Part shown: positions 1,173 through 63,959 of the stretch, one piece after another
How the letters are laid out: every line of letters begins with the position of its first letter
Position numbering within the stretch: position 1 is the stretch's first letter
Assembly: GCF_035084215.1 (NCBI RefSeq)
Contig: NC_090346.1
Span: forward strand, 14,322,001 to 14,386,000
Direction: 5' to 3'
DNA: 64,000 nucleotides
Source of the DNA: Heptranchias perlo
Taxonomy: Eukaryota
Program-made: the position numbers and the translations under genes
The notes under the pieces: generated by a model
Told to the model about the DNA's origin: nothing
What the model saw: only the letters and a program-made list of their open reading frames with translations
Database searches by the model: none

Positions 1173-3810
1173 TGTATTATAGAGAATAGCAGAGACTGTA
1201 GGCACTGTGTGTATTATAGAGAATAGCAGAGACTGCAGGCACTGTATTATAGAGAATAGCAGAGACTGCAGGCACTGTATTATAGAGAATAGCAGAGACT
1301 GTAGGCACTGTGTATTATAGAGAATAGCAGAGACTCAGGCACTGTATGTATTATAGAGAATAGCAAAGACTGCAGGCACTGTATTATTGAGAATAGCAGA
1401 GACTGTAGGCACTGTGTGTATTATAGAGAATAGCAGAGACTGTAGGCACTGTGTATTATAGAGAATAGCAGAGACTCAGGCACTGTGTGTATTATGGAGA
1501 ATAGCAGAGACTGTAGGCACTGTGTGTATTATAGAGAATAGCAGAGACTGTAGGCACTGTGTATTATAGAGAATAGCAGAGACTCAGGCACTGTGTGTAT
1601 TATGGAGAATAGCAGAGGCTGCAGGCACTGTGTGTTTTATAGAGAATAGCAGAGACTGCAGGCACTGTGTGTATTATAGAGAATAGCAGAGACTGCAGGC
1701 ACTGTGTGTTTTATAGAGAATAGCAGAGACTGCAGGCACTGTATTATAGCGAATAGCAGAGACTATAGGCACTGTGTGTATTATAGAGAATAGCAAAGAC
1801 TGCAGGCACTGTATTGTAGAGAATAGCAGAGACTGTAGGCACTGTATTATAGAGAATAGCAGAGACTCAGGCACTGTGTGTATTATGGAGAATAGCAGAG
1901 GCTGCAGGCACTGTGTGTATTATAGAGAATAGCAGAGACTGCAGGCACTGTGTGTATTATAGAGAATAGCAGAGACTGCAGGCACTGTGTGTATTATAGA
2001 GAATAGCAGAGACTCAGGCACTGTGTGTATTATAGAGAATAGCAGAGACTGCAGGCACTGTGTGTATTATAGAGAATAGCAGAGACTGCAGGCACTGTGT
2101 GTATTATAGAGAATAGCAGAGACTGTAGGCACTGTGTGTATTATAGAGAATAGCAGAGACTCAGGCACTGTGTGTATTATGGAGAATAGCAGAGGCTGCA
2201 GGCACTGTGTGTATTATAGAGAATAGCAGAGACTGCAGGCACTGTGTGTATTATAGAGAATAGCAGAGACTGCAGGCACTGTGTGTTTTATAGAGAATAG
2301 CAGAGACTGCAGGCACTGTATTATAGCGAATAGCAGAGACTAGGCACTGTGTGTATTATAGAGAATAGCAAAGACTGCAGGCACTGTATTGTAGAGAATA
2401 GCAGAGACTGTAGGCACTGTATTATAGAGAATAGCAAAGACTCAGGCACTGTGTGTATTATGGAGAATAGCAGAGACTGCAGACACTGTGTGTATTATAG
2501 AGAATAGCAGAGACTGCAGGCACTGTGTGTATTATAGAGAATAGCAGAGACTCAGGCACTGTGTGTATTATAGAGAATAGCAGAGACTGCAGGCACTGTG
2601 TGTATTATAGAGAATAGCAGAGACTGCAGGCACTGTGTGTATTATAGAGAATAGCAGAGACTGCAGGCACTGTGTGTATTATAGAGAATAGCAGAGACTG
2701 CAGGCACTGTGTGTATTATAGAGAATAGCAGAGACTGCAGGCACTGTGTGTATTATAGAGAATAGCAGAGACTGTAGGCACTGTGTGTATTATAGAGAAT
2801 AGCAAAGACTGCAGGCACTGTGTGTATTATAGAGAATAGCAGAGACTGTAGGCACTGTATTATGGAGAATAGCAGAGACTCAGGCACTGTGTGTATTATG
2901 GAGAATAGCAGAGACTGTAGGCACTGTGTATTATAGAGAATAGCAGAGACTGTAGGCACTGTGTGTATTATAGAGAATAGCAGAGACTCAGGCACTGTAC
3001 TATAGAGAATAGCAGAGACTGCAGGCACTGTGTGTATTATAGAGAATAGCAGAGACTGCAGGCACTGTGTGTATTATAGAGAATAGCAGAGACTCAGGCA
3101 CTGTGTGTATTATAGAGAATAGCAGAGACTGCAGGCACTGTGTGTATTATAGAGAATAGCAGAGACTGCAGGCACTGTGTGTATTATAGAGAATAGCAGA
3201 GACTCAGGCACTGTATTATAGAGAATAGCAGAGACTGTAGGCACTGTGTGTATTATAGAGAATAGCAGAGACTGTAGGCACTGTGTATTATAGAGAATAG
3301 CAGAGACTGTAGGCACTGTGTGTATTATAGAGAATAGCAGAGACTGCAGGCACTGTATTATAGAGAATAGCAAAGACTGCAGGCACTGTATTATAGAGAA
3401 TAGCAGAGACTGTAGGCACTGTATTATGGAGAATAGCAGAGACTGCAGGCACTGTGTGTATTATAGAGAATAGCAGAGACTGCAGGCACTGTGTGTATTA
3501 TAGAGAATAGCAGAGACTCAGGCACTGTGTGTATTATAGAGAATAGCAGAGACTCAGGCACTGTGTGTATTATAGAGAATAGCAGAGACTGTAGGCACTG
3601 TTTGTATTATAGAGAACATTAAACATCAAAACTAAATCTTGGGATTAATTCGGAACCTTTTTAGTCTGTTTGGTCCAGAACCATCAGAGGAGGCTTTTGG
3701 AGTTCATTATTTTTCCTTTGATTGGCTGAAGTTGATTATTGTGTTTAACCTTCTCGTACGTTTCTTGTTTTTGTCCATTCACAGGTTAAAGTGACAGAAG
3801 CTAAGAGGCC

Positions 3811-6800
3811 ATGCAGTCCTTCCGAGACCCCGGGGGTTTCCAAGGCAACCAGCAGGACTACCAGCAGGTCAGGGCAGACTCGTCTAGACTGGAGACCTAC
3901 AGGCAGCAGAACCCAGTCGCCCAAAGCTACGAGGCTCACGGGCTTCCCTCGAAGGAATATTACAACCAGCAATCTTATCAGGGCTACGGGAACAACACTG
4001 CTAGCAATTACTTTGGTGGCGTTAAACAGGTTTCTGCCCAGCACCCACAGGGTAGACCCTCCAGCGCGCTGTCCACTTACCAAAGCGCTGCATACTCAAG
4101 ACAGTATCAGGACGAAGGGCAAGCTCCAAAATGGGGGTCTCCAGGCTCATCAGTGGGAGGTCTATCACAATACAGCCAGGACTCATTTAAGGGATCTGTC
4201 CCTTCTGCCACCAGTGCTGCCTACCAACAGCAGCACATGCAAGCCAACGCCACCAGGAATCCGCCTTCCCTGTCCGCTCAACAGGCCCATTTCATGCACC
4301 AGTCTCACCACAAGCCCATGATGCAGCAGGCTTCCCCCTACGTTGCCAGGTCAGCGCAGTTCAACCAGGCCTTTCAGTCCTCGCCCCCCTCCTACCCCAC
4401 CATCCAGGATTACAGCCATCCCTCCCGCTCGTACGAAGGCTACGCGCAAGTACCCACAAGTTCACAGTACGACAGGCAGAGCGCGGCGACTCCGGACTAT
4501 GGCACCCAGGGCGGTTACGGGTACAAATCGACTCTCGCCAAGTCTGGGGTCTACGAGCAGAACAAAGCCGCCCAGGTCAAGCAGCACAGCCTCCAGTATC
4601 ACAACCAAGCAAAGCTGCACCTCTTAAATCAGTCGCCCCAGGTGTACTTTCAGCCTGAGGCTCCTGTAAAATCTCCTGAGCAGTTCTATCAAACCTTCAG
4701 CCCTACTTCTAGTCACTCTCCTGTTTCCACCGTGGTGAGGTCCCCATCTTATAGCTCAACTCCATCTCCATTGATGGCCAACCCTGAGACTCTCCAATAT
4801 GGCCAGCAACCTGAGGGTGGCTCCATGGCATCTGATATCAAAGGTAACGTGTCTCACTTGATGCCATCGGCAGCTCCTTCCTCAACGCAGAGTTCCAGCA
4901 AGACTCAGGGAGGAACCTGCAAGGTCTTCCTCAAGGATAAAATTCCTGAGAAATTGCTGTCAGATGGAGCTTTCAGCAGCCTCATAGCTCTGAGCTCTCA
5001 GGTTGAAAACATCCCCAGAACTGTTCAACAGCTGTTGCTTTCCAACACCTTGGCTCCTCATAGGAAGACGGGCAAACGACTGCCCAAAAAATCAGAGATA
5101 TTGAAGGAGCTGAAGGGTTCTGAGGAAAACCTGTATTCTGAAGAACCCCTGGGGACACCTCAGTCTGAACCTCTTGACACACCCCAGTCAGTGCAAACTG
5201 ACCTGCAGGAAGGAGAATATTCTAGCAGCTCCGAAGATCAGCTGGAGAAAATCCACTTTCTTCAGGGCCATTGCCGGAGCTCTGCCAATCTGGACGCCTT
5301 GAGAAAAAATCTGGACACCATTCTGTCCTGCTCTGTCACCTCGCCTAACGACATGGTCGCAGAATCCAAATCGGATGACTCGATGCAGAGTGGAGAAAGC
5401 TACCCAACATCATCAGACATTGAGAGGTTGACCGCTGATAGACAACCCATCCAGTTTTCAAAGGAGGATACAAAAGCTTCCAGTGTTATCATTCTAAAGG
5501 ACTCTTTCAAGGAGAGGTTGGAAGCAGAACTTAAGTTTAATCATTTTGGGTTGGATAAGGAAAGTAAGGGGGCGCACTTAAATTTCTACAGCGCCGAGAA
5601 CCATTTTGGGCACCTAATCCGCTCGAAACGATCCGGCCAAGAAGGACAAACTTTTGCCTCGGACTGCAACCAGGGGACAATTAAGAGTGACTTTCCAATG
5701 ATGACAAAGGGTTTTGGTGATGACACTTGCAGCGAATCCCAACTTTTCCCCCACAGGATGGACTCCACAAAGCCTTTGCAACCTTTGACAGTAGGTTACA
5801 GAGATAGCTTGATGTCTAACAGTGGCCATGAGTGCTATTCCTCGCAGAGTCCAGGTCCCCCGCAGGATTTGGAAAAGCTTAAGCTTTTCGATTTCCCGGA
5901 CAAGAAAGGGAAGGAGTCCTCATTGGAATGGGACGAGCTGGAGGTCGACCTTTTGCAGTGTGATCTTCAAAAAAAGTACCTTCAGAAATTCCATGCCAAC
6001 TACAAACAAGAGCAGAGACCTTTCCAGAAGGATTTGGCTCCTGTGCGGTTGGTCCAAGAGATGGAACACATGAGAGGAGCTGATGAAGAGAGCAATCTGG
6101 GGAACGGTGTTAACAGGATACACAGCAACTCTGAACTCAGGCTTCCCACCATGGAACAGAAGGAGTCACCAAGGACCAAATTGGCAGGAGATGAGGAGGT
6201 AACAGTGGAATCAAAAGGAAGTGCAGTTCTACAAGATGCTATTGCTGCCATTACTGAAAGAAAATCAGTCATCTGTGATATCTCCCCCACACGACACTGT
6301 GTTAAGGAGGTGGTCCCCCTAAATGCAGAAGAGAACTGTGGTTGTGCAGAGGAAAAGTTCAATAGCCCCGAGAGAGGGGAGGATAAAGTGGGTTCGAGTG
6401 CTGCACCCCGCTTGCTGGGGCATTCGGTTATCCATGTGGGACCCGCAATAGTCGCAGAATCAAAGGTTGGTCAAGGGGACCTTTCCGTAGCTGAGATGAA
6501 CCCCGAAGGGGAGAGTGTGAAGCACGAAGACCATCAGAAGGAAGAATTCCCTGAACCCACAGCGGCCGCAGAGACTCAGGAATTGCCAGCACTTTCCTCC
6601 GACTTAATCAGCTCGGCGCTGAGCCAAATAGAAAACGGTCCCTCGAAGATGTCGGGGAGCAGAGCTGCAAGAGTCCGGAGACTCTCGGCCAGAGCAGCAC
6701 AAGGAGCCGGGCTCAGGTGCAAAGACCATTCGCCGCCCAAAGCAGAAGAGAGCGTCCAGCCTCTCAGGGTGGTGCCGGCCAAACTGAGATGTTTGGGGCC

Positions 6801-9354
6801 ACAGAGAGACCGAGCTAGAAGTAAGGGACCCCAGGAAGGTCTCCCTGCCTCAGAATCCATGGCAAACCTGCCCACGAGAATGTGCACCCGCTCTTCTACC
6901 GCTTTAATGGAGACTGAGCTGAGCGTCCAGTCCCGGGGTCTCTTGAGAAAGGGAATGGTCTCTCACCGGGAGGATGGTCCAAGGGAAATGAGCTGTAGTT
7001 CTAGGCACAGGTTGCATTCAGACTCTGACAAGTGCTTGATCCAAAGGCAAGGTCCCAATCCCAGTATGAGAGCTCATCTGACCAGGACCAATGCCACGAC
7101 CCAGAGTAGGCCTGTCTACACTGTCCACACGGGTCAACAGATGAAGGGCCACGCGTGCTCAACCCAAGACTCCAATTCATATAAATCTGTTGTACTGAGG
7201 GCCAGGACGAGGGCTCAGGGAATGATTTTGCAAAAAGATGTAAAACAGCGAAAGAGCTGCAATTTTGTCCCCAGTCGATATTTGACCACCAGAAATAACT
7301 CTTCGGTCTCAAGGACTCAAAGACAACTGACTGCCAGACACGAGGCGTTGGATTATGTCGAAGGGGAAACGAAGGCCGAGAGATTAAAGGCAAGAAATTC
7401 GGCTTTAAGACTGGGGGGACAGGAGGACCAAAGATTTCCCTTATCGCACCCTTTGAAAAGAAAAGGTTACTGTTCCCTTTCGCCAATTCCGGCTAAAAGG
7501 CAACATCAGATGTTGAAGGCAAGCGATACAAGGACCGAAAGACAGAAACCACTTCCCGGTTCTTCTCCTTCAGAAAGTAACCCAACAGTTCAACCTATGG
7601 CCGATGAGCCCCACCAAGGGACCAGTGGTGAAGGAATTTCAGAACGTTGCCTCAGCAAGGGAACATCAAACACTGATGGCAATACCCAGTCTGTCATCTC
7701 TCTGAAGACCCCTGCTAAGACAAAAATACTGCCCCCCCGGAAAGGCAGGGGCCTGAAACTAGAGGCCATTGTGCAAAAGATCACCTCTCCAAACTCAAAG
7801 TCATTTGCCTGCAGCAATTATTCAGATAGTAATGTAACATGTTTGACCTTGGATGAGATACTGTCTCTAAAGGAGGAGCAACTTGCTGAAAATGCCAGTG
7901 ATGAGGTGCATCAGGCATTGATTGAACAAAGCAAAGTAACGGCCAAAGATGCTCCTTCAAAGATTGCCCTGGTGGAGTTGAATAAAAAATGTCTCATTGC
8001 ATCCAAGAGACTCAAAGAGGAAAATGAACCAAAAACTCAAGAGAAGAGCAGTGTTCATGTGAAGACTGATGTGAATATAACCGTAGAGCCAGAAAGTATT
8101 GATGTGAAAGACCAACTAAGTGTGAAGCTTTCTCCGAAGGAGAGGACGACGGAAGAGAAAGAGGGACAGCTCCCAACTGCTACTGACGATATTCCTCAGC
8201 TTGCCTCCCCTTCTTCAGTTTTGTCTTCGGTTTCAGATCCAGGTCCAAATGAGGAGTTGGAGAATTCTCAGGATGTGGTGGAACCGAAGAGGCAAACTCC
8301 CCCGAAATGTTGTCTTCCTCCTGCAAAGAGACGCAGTCACCCAATGGGGAATAAGAAGGTCAAACAAACCAAGAATAATTCCAAAGTCAAGAGGCCTAGT
8401 GGAAGAGGCGGGAGAAGGAGAAGAAAACACCTCAAAGGGAGCAAGACCACAAAAGCTGCCCACAGACGTAAAAACCAGCTAAAGAGACGAAACCTCCCTC
8501 TTGTGGAAACCAAAGAACCAGTGATACGGCTAAAATACGTGTCATATAAGATGCCAAGAGCAGAGAACAAAGCCAAGACCTTTTCTCCTTACATTCGTGT
8601 TGAGAAGAGTAAGGAGGTATCGTCCATCTGTACTATCATCAACACGTTGTCAGAGGAACAGTCCAGGTTCCAAAAGATAAAGAAAAAGTCTTCATTTTCA
8701 CAGGCGCCTGTATCAGTCAGCAAAACATTGCCAACATCTTCAGCTATGTTGCCAGGGCCTGTGGTGCTAGATTCCGTTAAGCAAGGCCATCTGGTCTGCT
8801 GCTTATGTGGAAGACCTAAGAATCACAAGGAGCTCGGAGACCTTTTTGGACCATATTATCCAGAGGACTATATACCGCCAGTAACAAAGAACCAGCACGT
8901 CAAGGGGAAATTGGAGATAAAGAATGGAATCAAAGAGACACAAGATGGGCTCTTCGTTGAATCAAAAGTTACCGACTCAGACAATGAGAGTACCGTCATT
9001 ATTACAGCAGAGGTTCCGTCCAGTCTGGAGGAGGTTCCGTCCAGTCTGGAGGAGGTTCCGTCCAGTCTGGAGAAGGCAACTGAGGTAGAAGATCAGAACC
9101 TTCTCAGGACTAGTTCAAGAGAAAAGTGCAAAAAGCTCAGCTGCTACTGCTGCGAGAAAACAGCCGAAGACACTGAGCCGAAGAAGGTGAAGAAGAAGCC
9201 GGGCGTAGAGGAGGATCTGCAACCTACTGAACTGCCTCTGGACCCCCACGAGCGCTGGGTTCATGGAGCCTGTGCTGTGTGGACAAGCGGAGTCTACCTG
9301 GTCGCAGGGAAGCTTTATGGTCTACAGGAGGCCGTGGAAATGGCCAGCGAAATG
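3811..9354 (+). CDS. RAI1: Retinoic acid-induced protein 1, large first coding exon (exon starts at 3785)
   Basis: N-terminus MQSFRDPGGFQGNQQDYQQ...SSRLETYRQ is RAI1-type rather than TCF20-type. Conserved blocks: VKSPEQFYQTFSP, RSPSYSSTPSPLM, LSSQVENIP, TKILPPRKGRGLKLEAIVQKITSP, CCLCGRP...LGDLFGPYY, WVHGACAVWTSGVYLVAGKLYGL. Acceptor cag at 3782-3784; donor ATG|gtgaga. Confidence 0.95.
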
Positions 9355-10837
9355 GTGAGATATCAAACCCAGATTATCATATGGGGAAACAATGCCTTCT
9401 TGAAGCATCGCAGAAATTAACTTGCTGCAATGTTGTCGAGATTGTGTGTGTGTGTGCGCGTATATAAAATCTACCTTTCAATTCATATTTCCCAGGCATA
9501 TATTGATTCAGTTGTGATGCACCTTTTTTCAGTTTTTTTTTGAGTGCTAAAACTGGGTTAGGGCAATGTCCCTTCACCCCTTGAGATCTGGGTTTGAGTT
9601 CAGCTTAGTGTGGGGTTGAAAATCCCCTCCTTCTGCTTTGATGGGAGGGCCCCGAGGGACAGCTGAATGCAGTCTCGGCCTACTCCCTCCTGAGCGTCTG
9701 CCCACAGCAACAGAACTGAATCTAATTCTTCAATAGTTAGTGTCATCCAGAGAGAGACCACAAGATTGCTTGGAGTGGAAGAATAAAAGGAAGAGGTGAA
9801 GTGCCGTGGAGGGAGCTCATCTAACGTTTGGGGTCAATGGACATTTTTGGAATTCATCTGACTTGTGCGGTGCAGACTGAGGGGAGAGGGCTTAGTGCAG
9901 CCCCTCACTGCAGTGACTACAAAACAAAGTGTGGGAAGGAGCACCAAAACAGAGTCAAATCCTTTTAAGGTTTAGAGAGTCAAGTGCATATTTGTTTTCT
10001 CTTCCCTCTAACGCTTGTAGCAAGTTTCTTTCTCCTGCCGTGTGCCAATAACTTACCAACCTGTCCTCTATAAGTCTTGAGCTCTGATGAAATTTAAGTT
10101 AAACCATCTTACCAACAGGGTGTGCAAAGATATCTCTCTCTCTGCCAGTTCATTAAGTCCTAAGAGGGTCTCGGTTTGGGGGTGATGTATTCGCACTCTT
10201 CACCTTGCCTGGAAAAGCCACGATGGTTTCGTTCCATCTCTGCTACAAACATGATTTACGACAGATTATTCTTCACAAACCTCTCTTTTTCTCCCCCTCA
10301 CCCCCCCCAACCCCACCCCCCCCCCCCCACACCGAGATGGTGTTAATATTTCCTGCAGGGAAGATGTAGTTTTACTTGGAGCCATTTCGTTAATTTCTAG
10401 GAACATGTCCAAATATTTTCTCCAAGTCTTTTAACAAGCTGGCCCTCCATCAACACTGATTCATTAAATTGTCACGTTTAGCGGGCCCTTGGTTTGTGAT
10501 TAAGTATCTGAGGTAAGTGGAGGGGGGTGAAATTTGTGATCAAATAGGGATATAACATCAGTTCTGGCATTCGGCGCCAATAAGGCACACCAAAGAAATA
10601 TTTTTTTCTAAATATATCGGTGCTTGCGCCTGTGTTGAGGGTGTTCGATCGATGCCACTTTGGGTTATTCATCTGCTAGGTGGCAAGTGTACTTTTCTCC
10701 TTCATCACTGCTTTTGGACTGCGAGTCCTTTTGACAGTGATGATCACTGCCCATCTAACATTGTAGTCTAATCATCTCTCGGAGCACTAGCTGAGCAGCC
10801 AAAAATCACAATTCTCGCATTAAGATCCTGCGAGTTG

Positions 10838-22371: not shown

Positions 22372-22442
22372 GCTCTGTATTGCATTGCAGGTGCATTGCA
22401 CATCGAGGACACATGCAATGCAACTACAATGCACCACAGCTG
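22372..22442 (-). ncRNA. MIR33: miR-33 precursor hairpin in SREBF1 intron 16 (5p 22414-22434; 3p about 22378-22398)
   Basis: Minus strand reads GTGCATTGTAGTTGCATTGCA-loop-CAATGCACCTGCAATGCAATA. It is co-oriented with the host gene and sits in the canonical SREBF intron. Confidence 0.95.
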
Positions 22443-30577: not shown

Positions 30578-30928
30578 TCTCTGTCACCAAATTGAACAAG
30601 ATGATATGGCGGAATGTTTGATTTTGTTACTTACAATCGTAAGTAAGCAGTACTTGTGAGCCACTATACAAACATCGAGAAATACAAAGCTCCCCCCTCC
30701 CCTCCCCGTGGCTCAGTTGGTAAATGTGCTGTCCAGTATGGGACTAAACCGTGCAGACCAGGATGATCACAAGTCTGCGCTAATTTAAACAGGTGCTACA
30801 GTTGGGATCAGCAGCTCTGGTCTAGGGAAGGAGATGGGGAGAAAGGAAAAACAAAAATTCAACTAGGTTTCCTGTTTCAGTGAGCTCTGCTGGTGTGTGC
30901 ATGTGTGTGTGCGCTAACATCAGGGGAG

Positions 30929-31144
30929 TCATGATGTGGAGATGCCGGTGATGGACTGGGGTTGACAATTGTAAACAATTTTACAACACCAAGTTATAGT
31001 CCAGCAATTTTATTTTAAATTCACAAGCTTTCGGAGGCTACCTCCTTCCACATCGTTCACCTGAGGAAGGAGGTAGCCTCCGAAAGCTTGTGAATTTAAA
31101 ATAAAATTGCTGGACTATAACTTGGTGTTGTAAAATTGTTTACA
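30929..31144. mobile_element. Penelope-like foldback insertion with hammerhead (31056-31094) and 13-bp TSD
   Basis: 80-bp inverted arms at 30970-31049 and 31065-31144. AACATCAGGGGAG is duplicated at 30916-30928 and 31145-31157. Confidence 0.88.
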
Positions 31145-31421
31145 AACATCAGGGGAGGCTAGGATCCTGCTCAGCTGTGATACCCTTCACACCTGAATAG
31201 CCTGCCGTCACTCATTGTTGAGGCGCACATAAGAATGGCCACTTGGAAGGTTGCTGGTGCCTGTAGCACCTCTGGACCTTCAGGAAAGGAAGGACCAGGG
31301 AGAAAAAAAAAGTAACGTACAAATAACTAAGCTCCAAGTGCCATTATGCTTACTCCTGTCCCATGACTCACGGTGTTACACTTTCAATCACACTCGGTTG
31401 TTTCGCCAACCAAATCGTTAC

Positions 31422-34724: not shown

Positions 34725-35110
34725 ACATTTGTATTAAAACGTAGTAAAACATCCCAAGGTGCTTCACAGGAGCATTATCAATAGAATTTGACACCGAGCC
34801 ACATAAAGAGATACTAGAACAGATGACCAAAAGCTTGGTCAAAGAAGTAGGTTTTAAGGAGCGACTTAAAGGAGGTGAACGAGGTAGAGAGGTGGAGAAG
34901 TTTAGTGGAGGAATTCCAGAGCTTAGGGCCTAGGCAGCTGAAGGCATGGCCGTCAACGGTGGGGCAATGGAAATCGGAGACGCACAAGAAGCCAAAATTA
35001 GAGGAGCTCAGAGATCTCGGAGGGTTGCAGGGCTAGAGGAGGATACAGAGATAGGGAGGGGCGAGGACATTTGAAAACAAGGATGAGAATTTTTAAATCG
35101 AGGTGTTGCC
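34725..35110 (-). mobile_element. L2-type LINE 3' end fragment
   Basis: Homologous to 10838-11165. Confidence 0.6.
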
Positions 35111-35442
35111 AGAAAATACAGGGATGAAGGCTCCAGTTAATTCAAGCAGGTGGTTTGGAGTGACAGGCAGGCCCTCCAAATCAATGCTGTGCTCCGGAGG
35201 CAAGTGTACTGGCACTCAAATTATTAATCTGTTGCAGACACCTCATCGCTCACCAATAAAGCCACAGTAGCTGGCAATCAGTGGATTATCTGCTACCTTT
35301 CCAAATGTAATACTAGGGCCTTAAGAAGAGTTTAATTTCTGCTCTCCTCTCTTGAAGGCAGTGGTTCATGCTGGGGTGCAGTTCTGCAGGTGCTGATCAC
35401 CCTCTGGTACATGTCCTCACTCTCCATGTGCAAGTCTAGACA

Positions 35443-35780
35443 TGATGCGGAGGTGCCGGTGATGGACTGGGGTGGACAAATGTAAGGATTCGCACAACAC
35501 CAGGTTATAATCGAACAGCTTTATTTGAAATCACAAGCTTTCGGAGCTTTGCTCCTTCGTCAGGTGACTAAGTATATTCCATATCCAAGCCATTTGCTTT
35601 GTAAGAAAGTTTTTCCTCATGTCACCTTTGGTGCTTTTGCCAATCACCTTAAATCTATGTCCTCTGGTCCTTGACCCTTCCGACAATGGGAACTCACCTG
35701 ACGAAGGAGCAAAGCTCCGAAAGCTTGTGATTTCAAATAAAGCCGTTGGACTATAACCTGGTGTTGTGCGAATCCTTACA
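35443..35780. mobile_element. Penelope-like foldback insertion: two inverted hammerhead-bearing arms around a CR1 fragment
   Basis: 87-bp inverted arms at 35481-35567 and 35694-35780. TSD CAAGTCT[A/G]GACA at 35431-35442 and 35781-35792. Confidence 0.88.
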
Positions 35781-36451
35781 CAAGTCTGGACAGTGAGCAT
35801 TGACAGGCTATTTATCGTTGTGCGAGCCACTGGTTGCCGTGTATCCTATATTACAACAGTAAATACACTACAAAAAGTACTTCACTGGCTGTGAAGCACT
35901 TAAGGACGCCTTCAAGTCTTGAAAGGTGCTATAGAAATGCTAGTTCTTACTTTCACAACTGAACCCAAACTGGTCCTCACTTGACGGCCATACACATGTG
36001 CATTATCTAGCTGAGATCACTGGACAGCAAACACGAGTGGGAACCCTAGCCCTCCTCACTTCCACTTTACTGAGGCCAGCTGTAGCACCGCTGCTGCTAT
36101 TCTAACCGGGACCAGCGAACTCAGCACAAACCAGGGACTGAACCTGGCATCGTCCGGATATGCGCGACTCTCTAGCGCAGGAGCAGTGCCATTATCAGCT
36201 GAACCAGCTCAGTTGTGACGTTATCTAGCATCTTGTGAAAGGATGCAGCAGGCAGTGAGGCAAACCAGCTGTCAGATCAATTCTTTCCTCTCGTGTTGCT
36301 CTGAACTACTGAAGCAGTCTGGTTGTCAGAATGATTGCAGCACCAACTGAAGAGACTAATCTGGTGCAACACTGTGTTTGCTTTGGTTACTGCACACACA
36401 ATGCAAATGGCACCATTCCAAAAGGCTTTCAATTTTGCACGGAACACACAC

Positions 36452-36713
36452 CAGTCATGTGGAGCTGCTGCAGCTTGTGATAGACCAGCGCCGCATCTCT
36501 GGTGCTCTTCCACATGTCGTCCTTCAGCTCCTTGTCTCGCCTGAAGCCTCCGGCCCGTGCTGCGAACCAGCGCCCAACCCACAGCCGCTGTAGAATGTGC
36601 CGGATGACGTTCCACATCAGACTACAGGCAAAGTCCAAGTTAGATGTAGGCAGAGGGCGTCCCAATGCCTTCAAACAGGTCCAGAGATTCTGGGAAGCTT
36701 GAGCAAAATCTCC
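36452..36713 (-). CDS. SREBF1: SREBF1 exon 10
   Basis: [49 protein letters not shown]...[16 protein letters not shown]; 262 nt. Confidence 0.96.
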
Positions 36714-36877
36714 CTGACAAAAAAATAAGATCAATGATAAAAACAGAGTGTTATTTTTCCATTCAGACTTCAAAACATTACGTCCCTTTTTAAAAAAGAA
36801 ATCCCCAATTTCCTCTCCTTCGCAACTGAAACCTCTGAATTCCACTGGCGTGCCGTTCCCTCCCAGTGCACATTCTT

Positions 36878-38750
36878 CATAGAATCACAGAAAGATTACA
36901 GAATGGAAGGAGGCCATTCGGCCCAACGAGTCCGCGCCGGATCTATGCAAGAGCAATCCAGCTAGTCCCACTCCCCCGCCCTATCCCTGTAACCCTGCAA
37001 GTTTTTTCCTTTCAAGTACTCATCCAGTTCCATTTTGAAGGCCATGATTGAATCTGCCTCCGCCAACCCCGCGAGCAGTATATTCCATATCCGAGCTATT
37101 CGCTTTGTAAAAAAGTTTTTCCTCATGTCACCTTTGGTTCTTTTGCCAATCACCTTAAATCTACGTCCTCTAGTCCTTGACCCTTCCGAGAATGGGAACA
37201 GTTTCTCTCTATTTGCTCTGTCTAGGCCCTTCATGATTTTGAATACCTCTATCAAATCTCCTCGCAACGGTCTCTGTTCCAAGAACCACCCCAGCTTCTC
37301 CAGTCTATCCACATAACTAAAGCCCCTCATCACTGGAATCATTGTACTAAATCTCTTCTGCACCCTCTCTAAGGCCTTCACGTCTTTCCTAAAGGGCAGT
37401 GCCCAGAACTGGACACAATACTCCAGTTGTGGCCGAACCACTGTTTTATAAAAGGTCCATCATGACTTCCATACTTTTTTACTCTATGCCTCTATGTATA
37501 AAGCCCAGGATCCCGTATGCTTTTTTAACCACTTTCTCAACCTGCCCTGCCACCTTCAACTATTTGTGCACATATACCCCCAGATCTCTCTGATCCTGCA
37601 CCCCTTTTAGAGTTGTGCCCTCTAGCTTATACTGCCTCTCCTCGTTCTTCCAACCAAAATGTATCACTTCGCATTTTTCTGCATTAAAAATTCATCTGCC
37701 ATGTGTCCGCCCGTACCACCAGCCCGTCTATATGCTCTTGAAGTCTATCACTATCCTCCTCACTGTTCACTACCCTTCCAAGTTTGTGTCATCTGCAAAT
37801 TTTGCAATTGTGCCCTGTACACCCTAGAACCAGCAATGCCTCCTTCCTCGTTGGGCCGGAAACGTACAGGTTAAGAAAGTTATCCTGAACACATTTCAAA
37901 AATTCCTCCCCCTCTTTTCCCCTGACATTATTATTATCCCAGTCTATATTAGGATCGTTGATGTCCCCAGTTATCACTACTCTATAGCTTTTGCACCTCT
38001 CTCTAATTTCCCTGCAAATTTGCTCCTCTATATCCTTCCCACTAGTTGGTGGCCTATAGAATACACCCAGTAGTGTAATGGCACCTCTTATTTCTTAACT
38101 CTAACCAAATATATTCTGTCCTTGAACCCTCCGAGACATCCTCTCTCTCCAGTACTGCAATATTCTCCTTAATCAATACTGCCACCAACCCCCTTCCTTT
38201 CTTTCCTTCACACCTTGAATCCAGAAATGTTTATACCCAATCCTGCCCTTTTTTGAACCAGGTCTCCGTTATCGCCACTACTATTGCACCTGCAGCTCAC
38301 CAACCTTGTTTACCACGTTTCGTGCGTTTACATACATGCACTGCAAACCAGTCTTAGACTTTCTTGTACTCTCTCTTAGTCTGATCCCACCTAATACTGT
38401 ACTATTACTTGCTCTAGTTCTATCTTTCTCCTCCGATCCTTTGTGCCCCTTGTTTCTCCGTTCCAATGCTACATCCTGGATCCCATCCCCCTGCCAAATT
38501 AGATTAAACCTCTCCCCGTAGCACTCGTGAACCTCCCCGCGAGGACATTGGTTCCAGCTCCGTTGAGGTGCAACCCGTCCGGCCTGTACAGGTCGCACCT
38601 TCCCCAGAACTGGTCCCAATGCCCCTGGAATCTAAAGCCCTCCCTCCTGCACCATCTCTCCAACCACGCATTCATCTGCTCCCCTATTTCTATACTCACT
38701 AGCGTGTGACACCCAGAGTAATCCGGAGAGTACTACCTTTGAGGTCCTGC
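36878..38750 (-). mobile_element. CR1 LINE with internal deletion (ORF1 esterase remnant, APE start, RT C-terminus, 3' UTR)
   Basis: ORF1 SGNH-like GHWDQFWGRCDLYRPDGLHLNGAGT; APE remnants LQCMYVNARNVVNK and GDINDPNIDW; jump near 37820 to VRPQLEYCVQFW. Confidence 0.9.
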
Positions 38751-55579: not shown

Positions 55580-55915
55580 TAGACAGAATCACACAACACA
55601 GAAAGTGACCATTCGGACCATCGTGCCTGTGCCGGCTCCTTGAAAGAGCTATCCAATTAGTCCCCTGCTCTTTCCCCGTAGCCCTGAAAATTTTTCCCCT
55701 TCAAGTATTTATCCAATTCTCTTTTGAAAGTTACTCTTGAATCTGCTACCACCACCTTTTCAGGCAATGCATTCCAGATCATAACTCGCTGTGTTTAAAA
55801 AAAACAATTCTCCATCTCCCCATTGGTTTTTTTGCCAATTATCTTAAATTTATGTCCTCAAGTTACAGACCCTCCTACCAGTGGAAACAGTTTCTCCTTA
55901 TTTAATCTATCAAGT
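55580..55915 (-). mobile_element. CR1-type LINE 3' fragment
   Basis: Reverse-complement homologue of 54670-55000. Confidence 0.75.
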
Positions 55916-62420: not shown

Positions 62421-62700
62421 TGGGAGTCGATAGTTCCTATGGTTAACATTCGAGTGTATTTTACAAGCGTCGAGGTGGGAGGGCGCAGTTTTGTTTCACC
62501 AGCTTGACTTGGAATCGTAAAATGTTGCAGCGCAGAAAGAGACTGTTTGGCGCATCATGTCTGCACACGTGTTTTTGTGCTCATGAGCCGCCTAGTCGCA
62601 CTTTTTAAAACACCCTCTTTTATTAAACGTGCTCATTCGAAAGAATTCATGGAATCTGCTTCAACAACATTTGTGATCTAGAATTCGGATGTATTTTCTA

Positions 62701-62793
62701 TGATGTGGAGATACCGGTGATGGACCAGGTTATAGTCCAACAGTTTTATTTGAAACTGTTGGACTATAACCTGGTGTTGTAAGATTCCTTACA
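62701..62793. mobile_element. Minimal Penelope-like foldback insertion with 13-bp TSD, inside an old CR1 remnant
   Basis: GATGTATTTTCTA at 62688-62700 and 62794-62806; internal palindrome CCAGGTTATAGTCCAACAGTTT/AAACTGTTGGACTATAACCTGG. Confidence 0.85.
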
Positions 62794-62989
62794 GATGTAT
62801 TTTCTAACCGTCCCTTAATTACTTTAAATGTGCGCCCTCTCATTACTGTCTCACCGACCAGGGGAAATAATCCTTCACTTTTTATCTTAAAACCCTTCAT
62901 AGTCTTGAACATATCCATCAGGTCACTTCTTAACCTTCTCAATTCCAGGCCCTAAGCTCTGAAATTCCCTCCCTAAATCTCTCCACCTC

Positions 62990-63538
62990 TCATAGAAATC
63001 ACAGCAGGCTATTCGGCCCATTGAGTCCATGCCAGCTCTATGCAAGAGCAATCCAGCTAGTCCCACTCCCCCGCTCTATCCCTGTAGCCCTACTGTTTTT
63101 TTCCTTTCAACTACTAATCCAGTTCCCTTTTGAAGGCCATGATTGAATCATGGTGCCTCCACCACCCCCTCAGGCAGTGCATTCCAGATCATAACCACTC
63201 ACTGTAAAGAAGTTTTTCCTCATGTCACCTTTGGTTCTTTTGCCAATCACCTTAAATCTATTGCCCTCTGGTTCTTGACCCTTCTGCCAATAGGAACAGT
63301 TTCGCTCTAGCTGATTTAAATTTGTCTATCAAATCTCCTCGCAACCTTCTCTGTTCCAAGGAGAACAACCCAGCTTCTCCAGTCTATCCACATAACTAAA
63401 GTCCCTCATCCCTGGAATCATTCTAGTAAATCTTTTCTGCACCATCTCCAAGGCCTTCACATCTTTCCTAAAGTGCGGTGCCCAGAACTGGACACAATAC
63501 TCCAGTTGTAATCAAACCAGTGTTTTATAAAGGTTCAT
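62990..63538 (-). mobile_element. 5'-truncated CR1 LINE
   Basis: Colinear with 36878-37460. Confidence 0.85.
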
Positions 63539-63584
63539 TTAAGTTGTTCCTTAAAACTTTCTGGGTCTGAAATTGAGTGTGAAA

Positions 63585-63959
63585 ATGCCTGAGGACAAGA
63601 AAGCAGCTCCCAAAAAGGGCGCCAAGAAAACCCTGAATAAAGCACCAGCCAAAGGCGGCAAGAAGCGTAGAAAGTCGAGGAAGGAGAGTTACTCCATCTA
63701 CATCTACAAAGTGATGAAACAGGTTCACCCCGACACCGGCATCTCCTCCAAGGCCATGAGCATCATGAACTCCTTTGTGAACGATATTTTTGAGCGCATC
63801 ACTGGTGAGGCTTCCCGCCTGGCCCATTACAATAAACGCCACACCATCAGCTCCCGGGAGATCCAGACCGCCGTGCGCCTGCTGCTGCCCGGGGAACTGG
63901 CCAAGCACGCCGTGTCAGAAGGGACCAAGGCAGTGACCAAATACACCAGCTCCAAGTAA
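63585..63959 (+). CDS. H2B: Histone H2B, intact 124-aa ORF; probable orphon/retrocopy
   Basis: [12 protein letters not shown]...[25 protein letters not shown]...AVTKYTSSK*. No histone promoter upstream, because a LINE lies about 46 bp before the ATG. Confidence 0.9.

Follow-up and report, generated by a model that had tools for sequence, protein, structure and literature searches.

How a piece of CR1 sequence came to lie between two inverted, hammerhead-bearing arms is the question raised by positions 35431-35792 of the window, that is, of the whole 64,000-nucleotide stretch of DNA analyzed here. The original prediction held that the filler had been copied from a neighboring CR1 copy during a Penelope-type insertion, with local DNA or pre-mRNA as the template, and that the product was a TIR-like cargo unit whose two strands each carry a ribozyme. 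The features of the locus, in window coordinates, are as follows.

35431..35442, no strand: left copy of the TSD, 12 bp, whose final 2 bases are common to the long-arm end
35443..35567, minus strand: long arm, 125 nt, a 5'-truncated Penelope-like (PLE) pLTR end with a 38-nt tail
35531..35567, minus strand: minimal type I hammerhead motif of the long arm, with a 4-bp stem I, a 5-bp stem II and no real stem III
35568..35570, no strand: three untemplated bases that separate the donor-proximal filler end from the long arm
35571..35693, plus strand: filler, 123 bp, assigned to the CR1 copy at 37077-37199 and in the same orientation as this donor
35694..35780, plus strand: short arm, an inverted pLTR end of 87 nt without a tail, with a minimal hammerhead motif at 35694-35730
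35781..35792, no strand: right copy of the TSD, 11/12 identical to the left copy
36429..36622, minus strand: probable host-gene exon, which sits between the insertion and the donor
37077..37199, plus strand: donor stretch inside a CR1-type LINE copy, 1.3 kb from the insertion

The arms of the inverted repeat (35481-35567 and 35694-35780) are 87 nt each, are complementary at 84/87 bases (97%) and are spaced 126 nt apart, which bears out the two 87-bp inverted arms originally described. The 12-bp TSD described with them holds with one mismatch. The 126 bp of CR1 sequence said to be enclosed proved correct as to the size of the gap, but only 123 nt of it are CR1 and 3 bases are untemplated. The left arm continues for 38 nt past the inverted repeat as a PLE tail (35443-35480), so on this side the repeat stops short of the terminus. 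The long arm is 94–97% identical to 29 sister loci and ends at an ATG that apparently opens the element ORF in sister copies. Both arms had been claimed to stop exactly at the 5' stem of the ribozyme. This is true of the long arm, which stops at the first base of stem I, but the short arm stops either at that base or 2 nt beyond it, the ambiguity arising because the last 2 filler bases are common to the element's own upstream sequence.

The donor CR1 has its reading frame on the minus strand, with its 3' end near 36880. The host gene is also on the minus strand, as seen from exon-like frames and from miR-33, which Rfam placed at 22375-22439 (minus strand). From its translated frames and the miR-33 inside it, we take this gene to be SREBF1. 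Pfam returned no name for the host exons, Atlas likewise left the host exon unnamed, and a PDB sequence search gave no significant match. Elsewhere in the window, a single-exon frame of 1871 aa at 3805-9420 (plus strand) is presumably RAI1, and a histone H2B-like reading frame, recognized by its translation, is present at 63525-63959 (plus strand).

Head-to-head pairs of this kind were counted across the genome with exact-anchor patterns. Spacers of 0–59 nt were found in 3143 pairs and spacers of 60–260 nt in 624; patterns with the anchor inside the ribozyme gave 5317 pairs, and those with the anchor further 3' gave 8309. Sister loci have the same long arm with a one-sided tail, the same short arm and a TSD. 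The locus is an ordinary head-to-head PLE insertion, composed of a long tailed arm, a short arm and a TSD, and this is the routine form of the family. The same layout, an inverted 5'-truncated copy with a one-sided tail of 30–40 bp and a TSD, is described for PLEs in PMC8557442 and PMC3846280. RT is absent from the window copy itself and was found in a related copy, L341, whose ORF matched Pfam RVT_1 (E 2.5e-10) and whose locus also contains a pLTR match to the window's arm (80% over 103 nt). For a frame in the sister copy L054, a GIY-YIG-like endonuclease region is suggested by an Atlas look-alike at 0.96 with GIY-YIG on 21% of family members, and Pfam made no call.

The proposed TIR-like cargo unit does not agree with this form, as the composite is single-copy, its arms are unequal, its tail is one-sided and its TSD is of the PLE type. 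A TIR/MITE element was considered and rejected: the left terminus is a 38-nt tail outside the inverted repeat, and there are no further copies of the composite. The window insertion is a dead scar, one of many, and nothing suggests that it is functional or mobile. The window also contains two ordinary head-to-head PLE palindromes that have TSDs and lack foreign filler (30915-31155 and 62688-62806). At 300-1250, two same-orientation PLE arms (short, 375-449; long, 1047-1171) lie inside a tandem repeat, with a stretch of that repeat inverted between them, and this may be another insertion-linked rearrangement.

Each arm has a hammerhead motif of the minimal type I form, in which stems I and II are present and a real stem III is lacking; a minimal type I hammerhead of PLEs without helix III is described in PMC7761336. 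Rfam gave no hammerhead match at the gathering score or at E up to 10, and its matches to MIR5048 and MIR396, both below cut-offs, can be attributed to the long hairpin. The claim of a complete hammerhead in each arm is therefore correct in that the motif is present in both, and incorrect in that neither a real stem III nor an Rfam call accompanies it. When the motif was folded in isolation, stems I and II were predicted to form. A modeled read-through RNA, whichever strand it is read from, has the antisense arm ahead of the sense arm and the two paired (-192.7 kcal/mol); the pairing probability of stems I and II is close to 0, and each strand has one sense copy of the motif only. The single hairpin of a read-through RNA is thus predicted to mask the minimal hammerhead, and this predicted masking speaks against the functional ribozyme that had been proposed for each strand.

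Arm ends cluster at the 5' edge of the ribozyme genome-wide. A count by hand of the first 50 of the 8309 places found a pair length of 133–143 nt in 19, within a possible range of 34–434; a length of 142–144 nt is expected if each arm stops at the first base of stem I. Across subfamilies, the end of the longer arm moved with the position of a TATA motif. With TATA at -41/-42 (n = 21), the median end was 12 nt upstream of stem I, with 11 ends at 12–13 nt and none at 14–23 nt. The median was 10 nt with TATA at -38 (n = 10) and 5 nt with TATA at -32 to -34 (n = 8). The relationship between arm end and TATA offset (Mann-Whitney p = 0.004, Spearman p = 0.007) was assessed in 39 of 50 places from the 0–59-nt spacer search, grouped by hand by subfamily, with 6 places skipped by the script, 5 ungrouped, and the 30 places of the ribozyme-anchored search left out because they were selected differently. 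In the window's subfamily, TATA is at -32/-33, and the end of the short arm coincides with an initiator-like A located ~2 nt upstream of stem I. From the shift of arm ends with the TATA/initiator-like site, we infer that the cDNA runs off at the RNA 5' end. The sequences are consistent with run-off at a motif-predicted RNA start setting the arm ends. A promoter inside the pLTR is described for Drosophila Penelope (PMC2377424), and TATA and initiator motifs for rotifer elements (PMC3846280). In the subfamily with TATA at -42 (L249, L250, L251, L255 and L256), arms often end in A runs of 7–17 nt as compared to 4 A in the element, a pattern suggestive of slippage, or of terminal addition, where the RNA is predicted to begin.

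The source of the filler was sought by comparison with other CR1 copies in the genome. Filler and neighboring CR1 (35571-35693 and 37077-37199) are identical at 115/123 positions, and the neighbor was the top non-self match genome-wide, at 187 bits compared to 173 for the next, among the 40 scored of 1031 candidates. The two have 8 non-majority bases in common when compared with 31 alignment rows from 28 other CR1 loci, and two of those 8 bases occur in 0/31 of these rows. A 28-nt pattern bearing the variants had exactly 2 matches in 3.25 Gb, the filler and the neighbor, and its control had 0. A random CR1 copy as the source was rejected on this diagnostic pattern. The CR1 copies at 55768 and 63178 carry the majority motif TGCATTCCAGATC, as they had originally been read. 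The left junction of the composite was found once among 34 matches, and the composite is thus single-copy.

The variants that filler and neighbor were first said to have in common are upheld by the rare bases and the 28-nt pattern. The genome-wide search of the filler, which had been proposed as a check, returned 37077-37199 as its best non-self match. Because the neighbor is the best match, the pattern occurs in two places and the left junction occurs once, distant CR1 copies do not match the filler equally well and the composite does not exist in many copies; these were the two findings that had been named in advance as refuting the proposal. A look for an empty site in related species had been proposed as well; among the contigs listed for related organisms, compared over 34900-37500 and 35170-35445, unique flanks were covered and none extended across the insertion point. 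The filler is almost certainly a local copy inside a PLE insertion, and on this point the original prediction, of a filler copied from the neighboring CR1 within a Penelope-type insertion, is supported by the best match and the unique pattern. This filler has the lowest donor identity of the event set described below and fell under the 93% cut after trimming in the cross-locus control. Arm divergence (3/87) and filler-donor divergence (8/123) did not differ (p = 0.53), and their agreement is compatible with one event.

Local capture was found to be recurrent. Among the first 50 of the 624 places with a 60–260-nt spacer, taken in genome order, 9 had a non-PLE filler and 8 of these 9 had a donor within ~1.5 kb. 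Extrapolation from 9/50 (95% interval 9–31%) gives 55–195 filler-bearing pairs among the 624, which indicates that PLE insertions also duplicate short host segments locally. A survey of TSD-flanked inverted pLTR pairs had also been proposed as a check. Including the window, 46 of 48 foreign fillers had a donor 22–3075 bp away, in a set that was assembled with enriched searches beyond the genome-order sample and whose candidates were judged to be non-PLE by visual inspection of their first 80 listed bases, without knowledge of where the donor lay, with one foreign-looking place possibly missed. The 46 local fillers are 32–369 bp long and 93.5–100% identical to their donors. Microhomologies at the junctions are 1–7 nt long. 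Median donor distances were 499 bp and 265 bp in the two sets of events. As a control, fillers matched their own flanks (4.2 kb) at 32/37 loci, compared to 12/1739 pairings with the flanks of other loci. Donors lie on both sides and on both strands (8, 7, 7 and 5 in set 1; 4, 5, 7 and 3 in set 2), and this even use is as any DNA-repair model predicts.

Several places were set aside before the count of 48. These were L107 (a paralogue of L108 with no donor within 3.9 kb and no TSD called) and the nested or neighboring insertions L118, L123/L164, L126/L169, L134 and L137/L170; L035/L165, which is rearranged, was kept apart. From the 28 places of the fresh set used below, L247, L248, L250 and L258 were excluded as being without a TSD, and L231, L235, L241 and L244 as having an element-derived or low-complexity filler. 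Two TSD-flanked foreign fillers, in L158 and L249 (~110 and ~250 bp), had no donor within ~4.4 kb. L107 and L108 (G000:C2, 24.10 and 24.94 Mb) contain the same filler-bearing insertion 840 kb apart, with the donor beside L108 only; the pair probably reflects a later duplication of the region. In L235 (G000:C9:27636666-27636897), the filler between two short arms is ~180 bp of the element's own RT coding region, is 100% identical to a copy on another contig, and is attributed to a jump within the element RNA. A literature search that covered few subscription papers, and main texts without supplements, returned no paper on locally templated fillers in PLE insertions or on the polarity of such fillers.

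The junctions of these fillers have a polarity. The donor end near the insertion tends to untemplated bases or extra pieces, whereas the far end tends to meet the arm directly through microhomology. Among the first 27 events, the cleaner junction was at the donor end far from the insertion by 22:4, a post hoc count. A fresh set of 28 new places, examined after the idea was recorded, supplied 19 events with a TSD and a donor, and these gave 14:4 in favor of the distal end (p = 0.031). In a uniform re-analysis of the 46 events, the distal junction was cleaner in 35, the proximal in 9 (these exceptions run the opposite way) and 2 were ties; here the clean junction is read as the entry point, an assumption whose backing comes solely from the two-armed cases. 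Microhomology of at least 2 nt was present at 25 distal compared to 5 proximal junctions in the same events, and simple fillers taken separately (n = 26) gave 18:6 distal (p = 0.023). Of 12 multi-piece fillers, 9 had both arms copying towards the cut, 0 had both copying away, and 3 were same-orientation and uninformative. The two-armed captures thus stand at 9:0 (p = 0.004), or at 8:0 without L152, whose second piece is 155 nt from its arm. Palindromic fillers were seen in L157, L160, L246 and L254, where a single donor had been captured twice, once by each arm and each time from the far end of that donor. The window locus has a 2-nt microhomology at the distal junction, a length obtainable by chance on which its direction rests, and 3 untemplated bases at the proximal junction.

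Copying towards the cut implies that, on either side, the template had the sequence of the strand with its 5' end at the break. The strand that is 5'-ended at a break is removed by resection, or is remade by fill-in synthesis or break-induced transcription. The junction polarity argues against a pre-mRNA template and against fold-back on resected 3' tails; it favors a template identical in sequence to the strand that is 5'-ended at the break.

From the observed anatomy, donor identity, single copy, recurrence, junction polarity and clustering of arm ends, a chain of events can be proposed. Taken whole, we consider it somewhat likelier to be right than wrong that a PLE inserted and that its CR1 filler was copied towards the cut, during sealing, from a loose template resembling the 5'-ended strand. 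The element protein would cut both strands with a stagger, as the 12-bp TSD and the work in PMC11167929 suggest. Each 3' end would then prime RT at one of two adjacent RNA sites, giving the long tailed arm and the short arm. Both cDNAs would end by run-off where the RNA begins, a short way upstream of the hammerhead and near the TATA/initiator-like site. A plus-strand piece of the neighbor, whether a fragment released by resection, a strand made by fill-in or a break-induced RNA, may have offered its far end for a 2-nt pairing with the end of the short-arm cDNA. Either the element RT or a host polymerase would then have extended this cDNA end by 123 nt towards the cut, and the extended end would be joined to the long arm with 3 untemplated bases.

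One rearranged locus bears on the priming step. At L035/L165 (G000:C1 near 55.77 Mb; L165:3800-4540), both PLE arms are on the TSD ends and are not joined together, and there is an inversion of ~380 bp of the target CR1 together with a duplication of 138 bp. As these arms were never joined, independent priming from both cut ends is preferred over self-copying of one cDNA. The locus also suggests that small inversions are caused by PLEs. A more specific version of the chain, in which the insertion is two-ended and the telomerase-related RT switches end-to-end to strands that are set free or synthesized at the break it made, is put forward tentatively and may well be wrong. If it were true, the fillers would preserve, with a readable polarity, a fossil trace of how ends are processed as far as 3 kb from germ-line breaks, and they would steadily add short local duplications and inversions to this genome.

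Other explanations were weighed against copying from a loose, 5'-ended-strand-like template. Capture at insertion might proceed by invasion of the intact neighboring duplex, through a D-loop, synthesis-dependent strand annealing or microhomology-mediated template switching by a host polymerase. We judge this unlikely, although it agrees with microhomologies of 1–7 nt, with multi-piece fillers and with the use of both sides and strands, and although L035/L165 needs templates on both strands. Microhomologies of 1–2 bases are weak for strand invasion, which counts against it. It also offers no obvious cause for synthesis towards the cut on both sides (35:9 and 9:0), unless a loop-back geometry like that of a telomere t-loop gave the direction bias. 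Duplex invasion has been proposed for L1 templated insertions (10.1101/2024.08.27.596794). It appears very improbable that the RT instead jumped onto host pre-mRNA of the minus-strand gene, or onto CR1 RNA, with entry at the donor end near the insertion. The donor is indeed upstream of the insertion in the host transcript, host gene and CR1 are both on the minus strand, and the 3 untemplated proximal bases could be a run-off addition before the jump. However, nascent RNA predicts copying away from the cut or no bias, and the bias seen is towards the cut on both sides; the microhomology junction in the window also implies a plus-strand template, which is neither pre-mRNA nor CR1 sense RNA. The pre-mRNA named as a possible template in the original prediction is thus disfavored by the polarity of the 46 events, the window's own polarity being a 2-nt microhomology.

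The filler could also be younger than its arms, if a near-perfect palindrome was inserted first and its broken center was later mended by templated repair. Thousands of near-perfect palindromes are present in the genome, and such palindromes are fragile, which counts in favor of later repair. We nevertheless hold it to be improbable, since the arms of filler events end at the same hot spot as filler-less arms, with no extra loss, and many events combine 100% arm identity with 100% filler-donor identity. In addition, the ages of arms and filler agree at the window locus, and the arms of L035/L165 were never joined. The fold-back shape with a TSD and the abundance of CR1 (1031 candidates) might suggest that the composite is its own non-autonomous TIR-like family, or that any CR1 filler was later homogenized with its neighbor. 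This explanation is largely refuted and is extremely improbable: the diagnostic pattern has 2 matches only, the left junction was found once among 34 matches, the arms are unequal with a one-sided tail, and the other fillers are all different and local and are often unique sequence.

The preferred reading, of copying towards the cut from a loose template, can be set beside known systems. The insertion resembles those of EN+ PLEs (PMC8557442, PMC3846280) in its head-to-head arms, one-sided tail (38 nt here) and TSD, and also in its minimal type I hammerhead and in the TATA and initiator-like motif of the pLTR; the RT ORF is present here in sister copies. A few unrelated sequences captured between TSD-flanked solo pLTRs are described in PMC3846280. 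In the portions of PMC3846280 and PMC8557442 drawn on here, however, captured sequence is not traced to neighboring DNA, and neither frequency nor polarity is given. Inverted junctions are explained in PMC3846280 by self-priming on an antisense template, whereas L035/L165 and the two-armed captures fit two-end priming better.

For Anolis Poseidon (PAc), a dimer is predicted, both strands are cut and extended in vitro, and two adjacent RT start sites bound the tail (PMC11167929). The two start sites, together with extension of both strands, would explain why one arm is long and one is short. The relevant sections of that report are silent on the joining of cDNA ends and on the capture of flanking DNA. 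In vitro work on PLEs ends at priming, and the polarity rule makes the final step of insertion testable. The rules of the class are a donor at no more than ~3 kb on either side, entry at its far end, copying towards the cut, and arms that end at the predicted RNA start.

L1 insertion and break repair offer precedents for the parts of this process, which makes the class less surprising. At yeast double-strand breaks, fold-back of a 3' end on its own resected strand produces templated inversions of 5–34 bp (PMC11724301). These resemble the PLE fillers in the microhomology-primed copying of break-adjacent DNA, in capture by end joining and in paired inverted pieces, but yeast fold-back copies away from the break, whereas PLE fillers are 32–369 bp long and mostly copied towards the cut. 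L1 templated insertions are the closest known process. They numbered 22 in ~3600 insertions, where they were not specifically searched for, and are typically <250 bp and within 15 bp of the site (10.1101/2024.08.27.596794). In templated insertions and twin priming of L1 (10.1101/2024.08.27.596794, PMC11702581), as in the events described here, a near-target segment is duplicated, flanked by a TSD and joined at a microhomology, and both break ends can prime. The PLE events differ from L1 templated insertions in that their donors are 22–3075 bp away (1.3 kb in the window), their fillers lie between inverted arms, and their copying has a direction bias.
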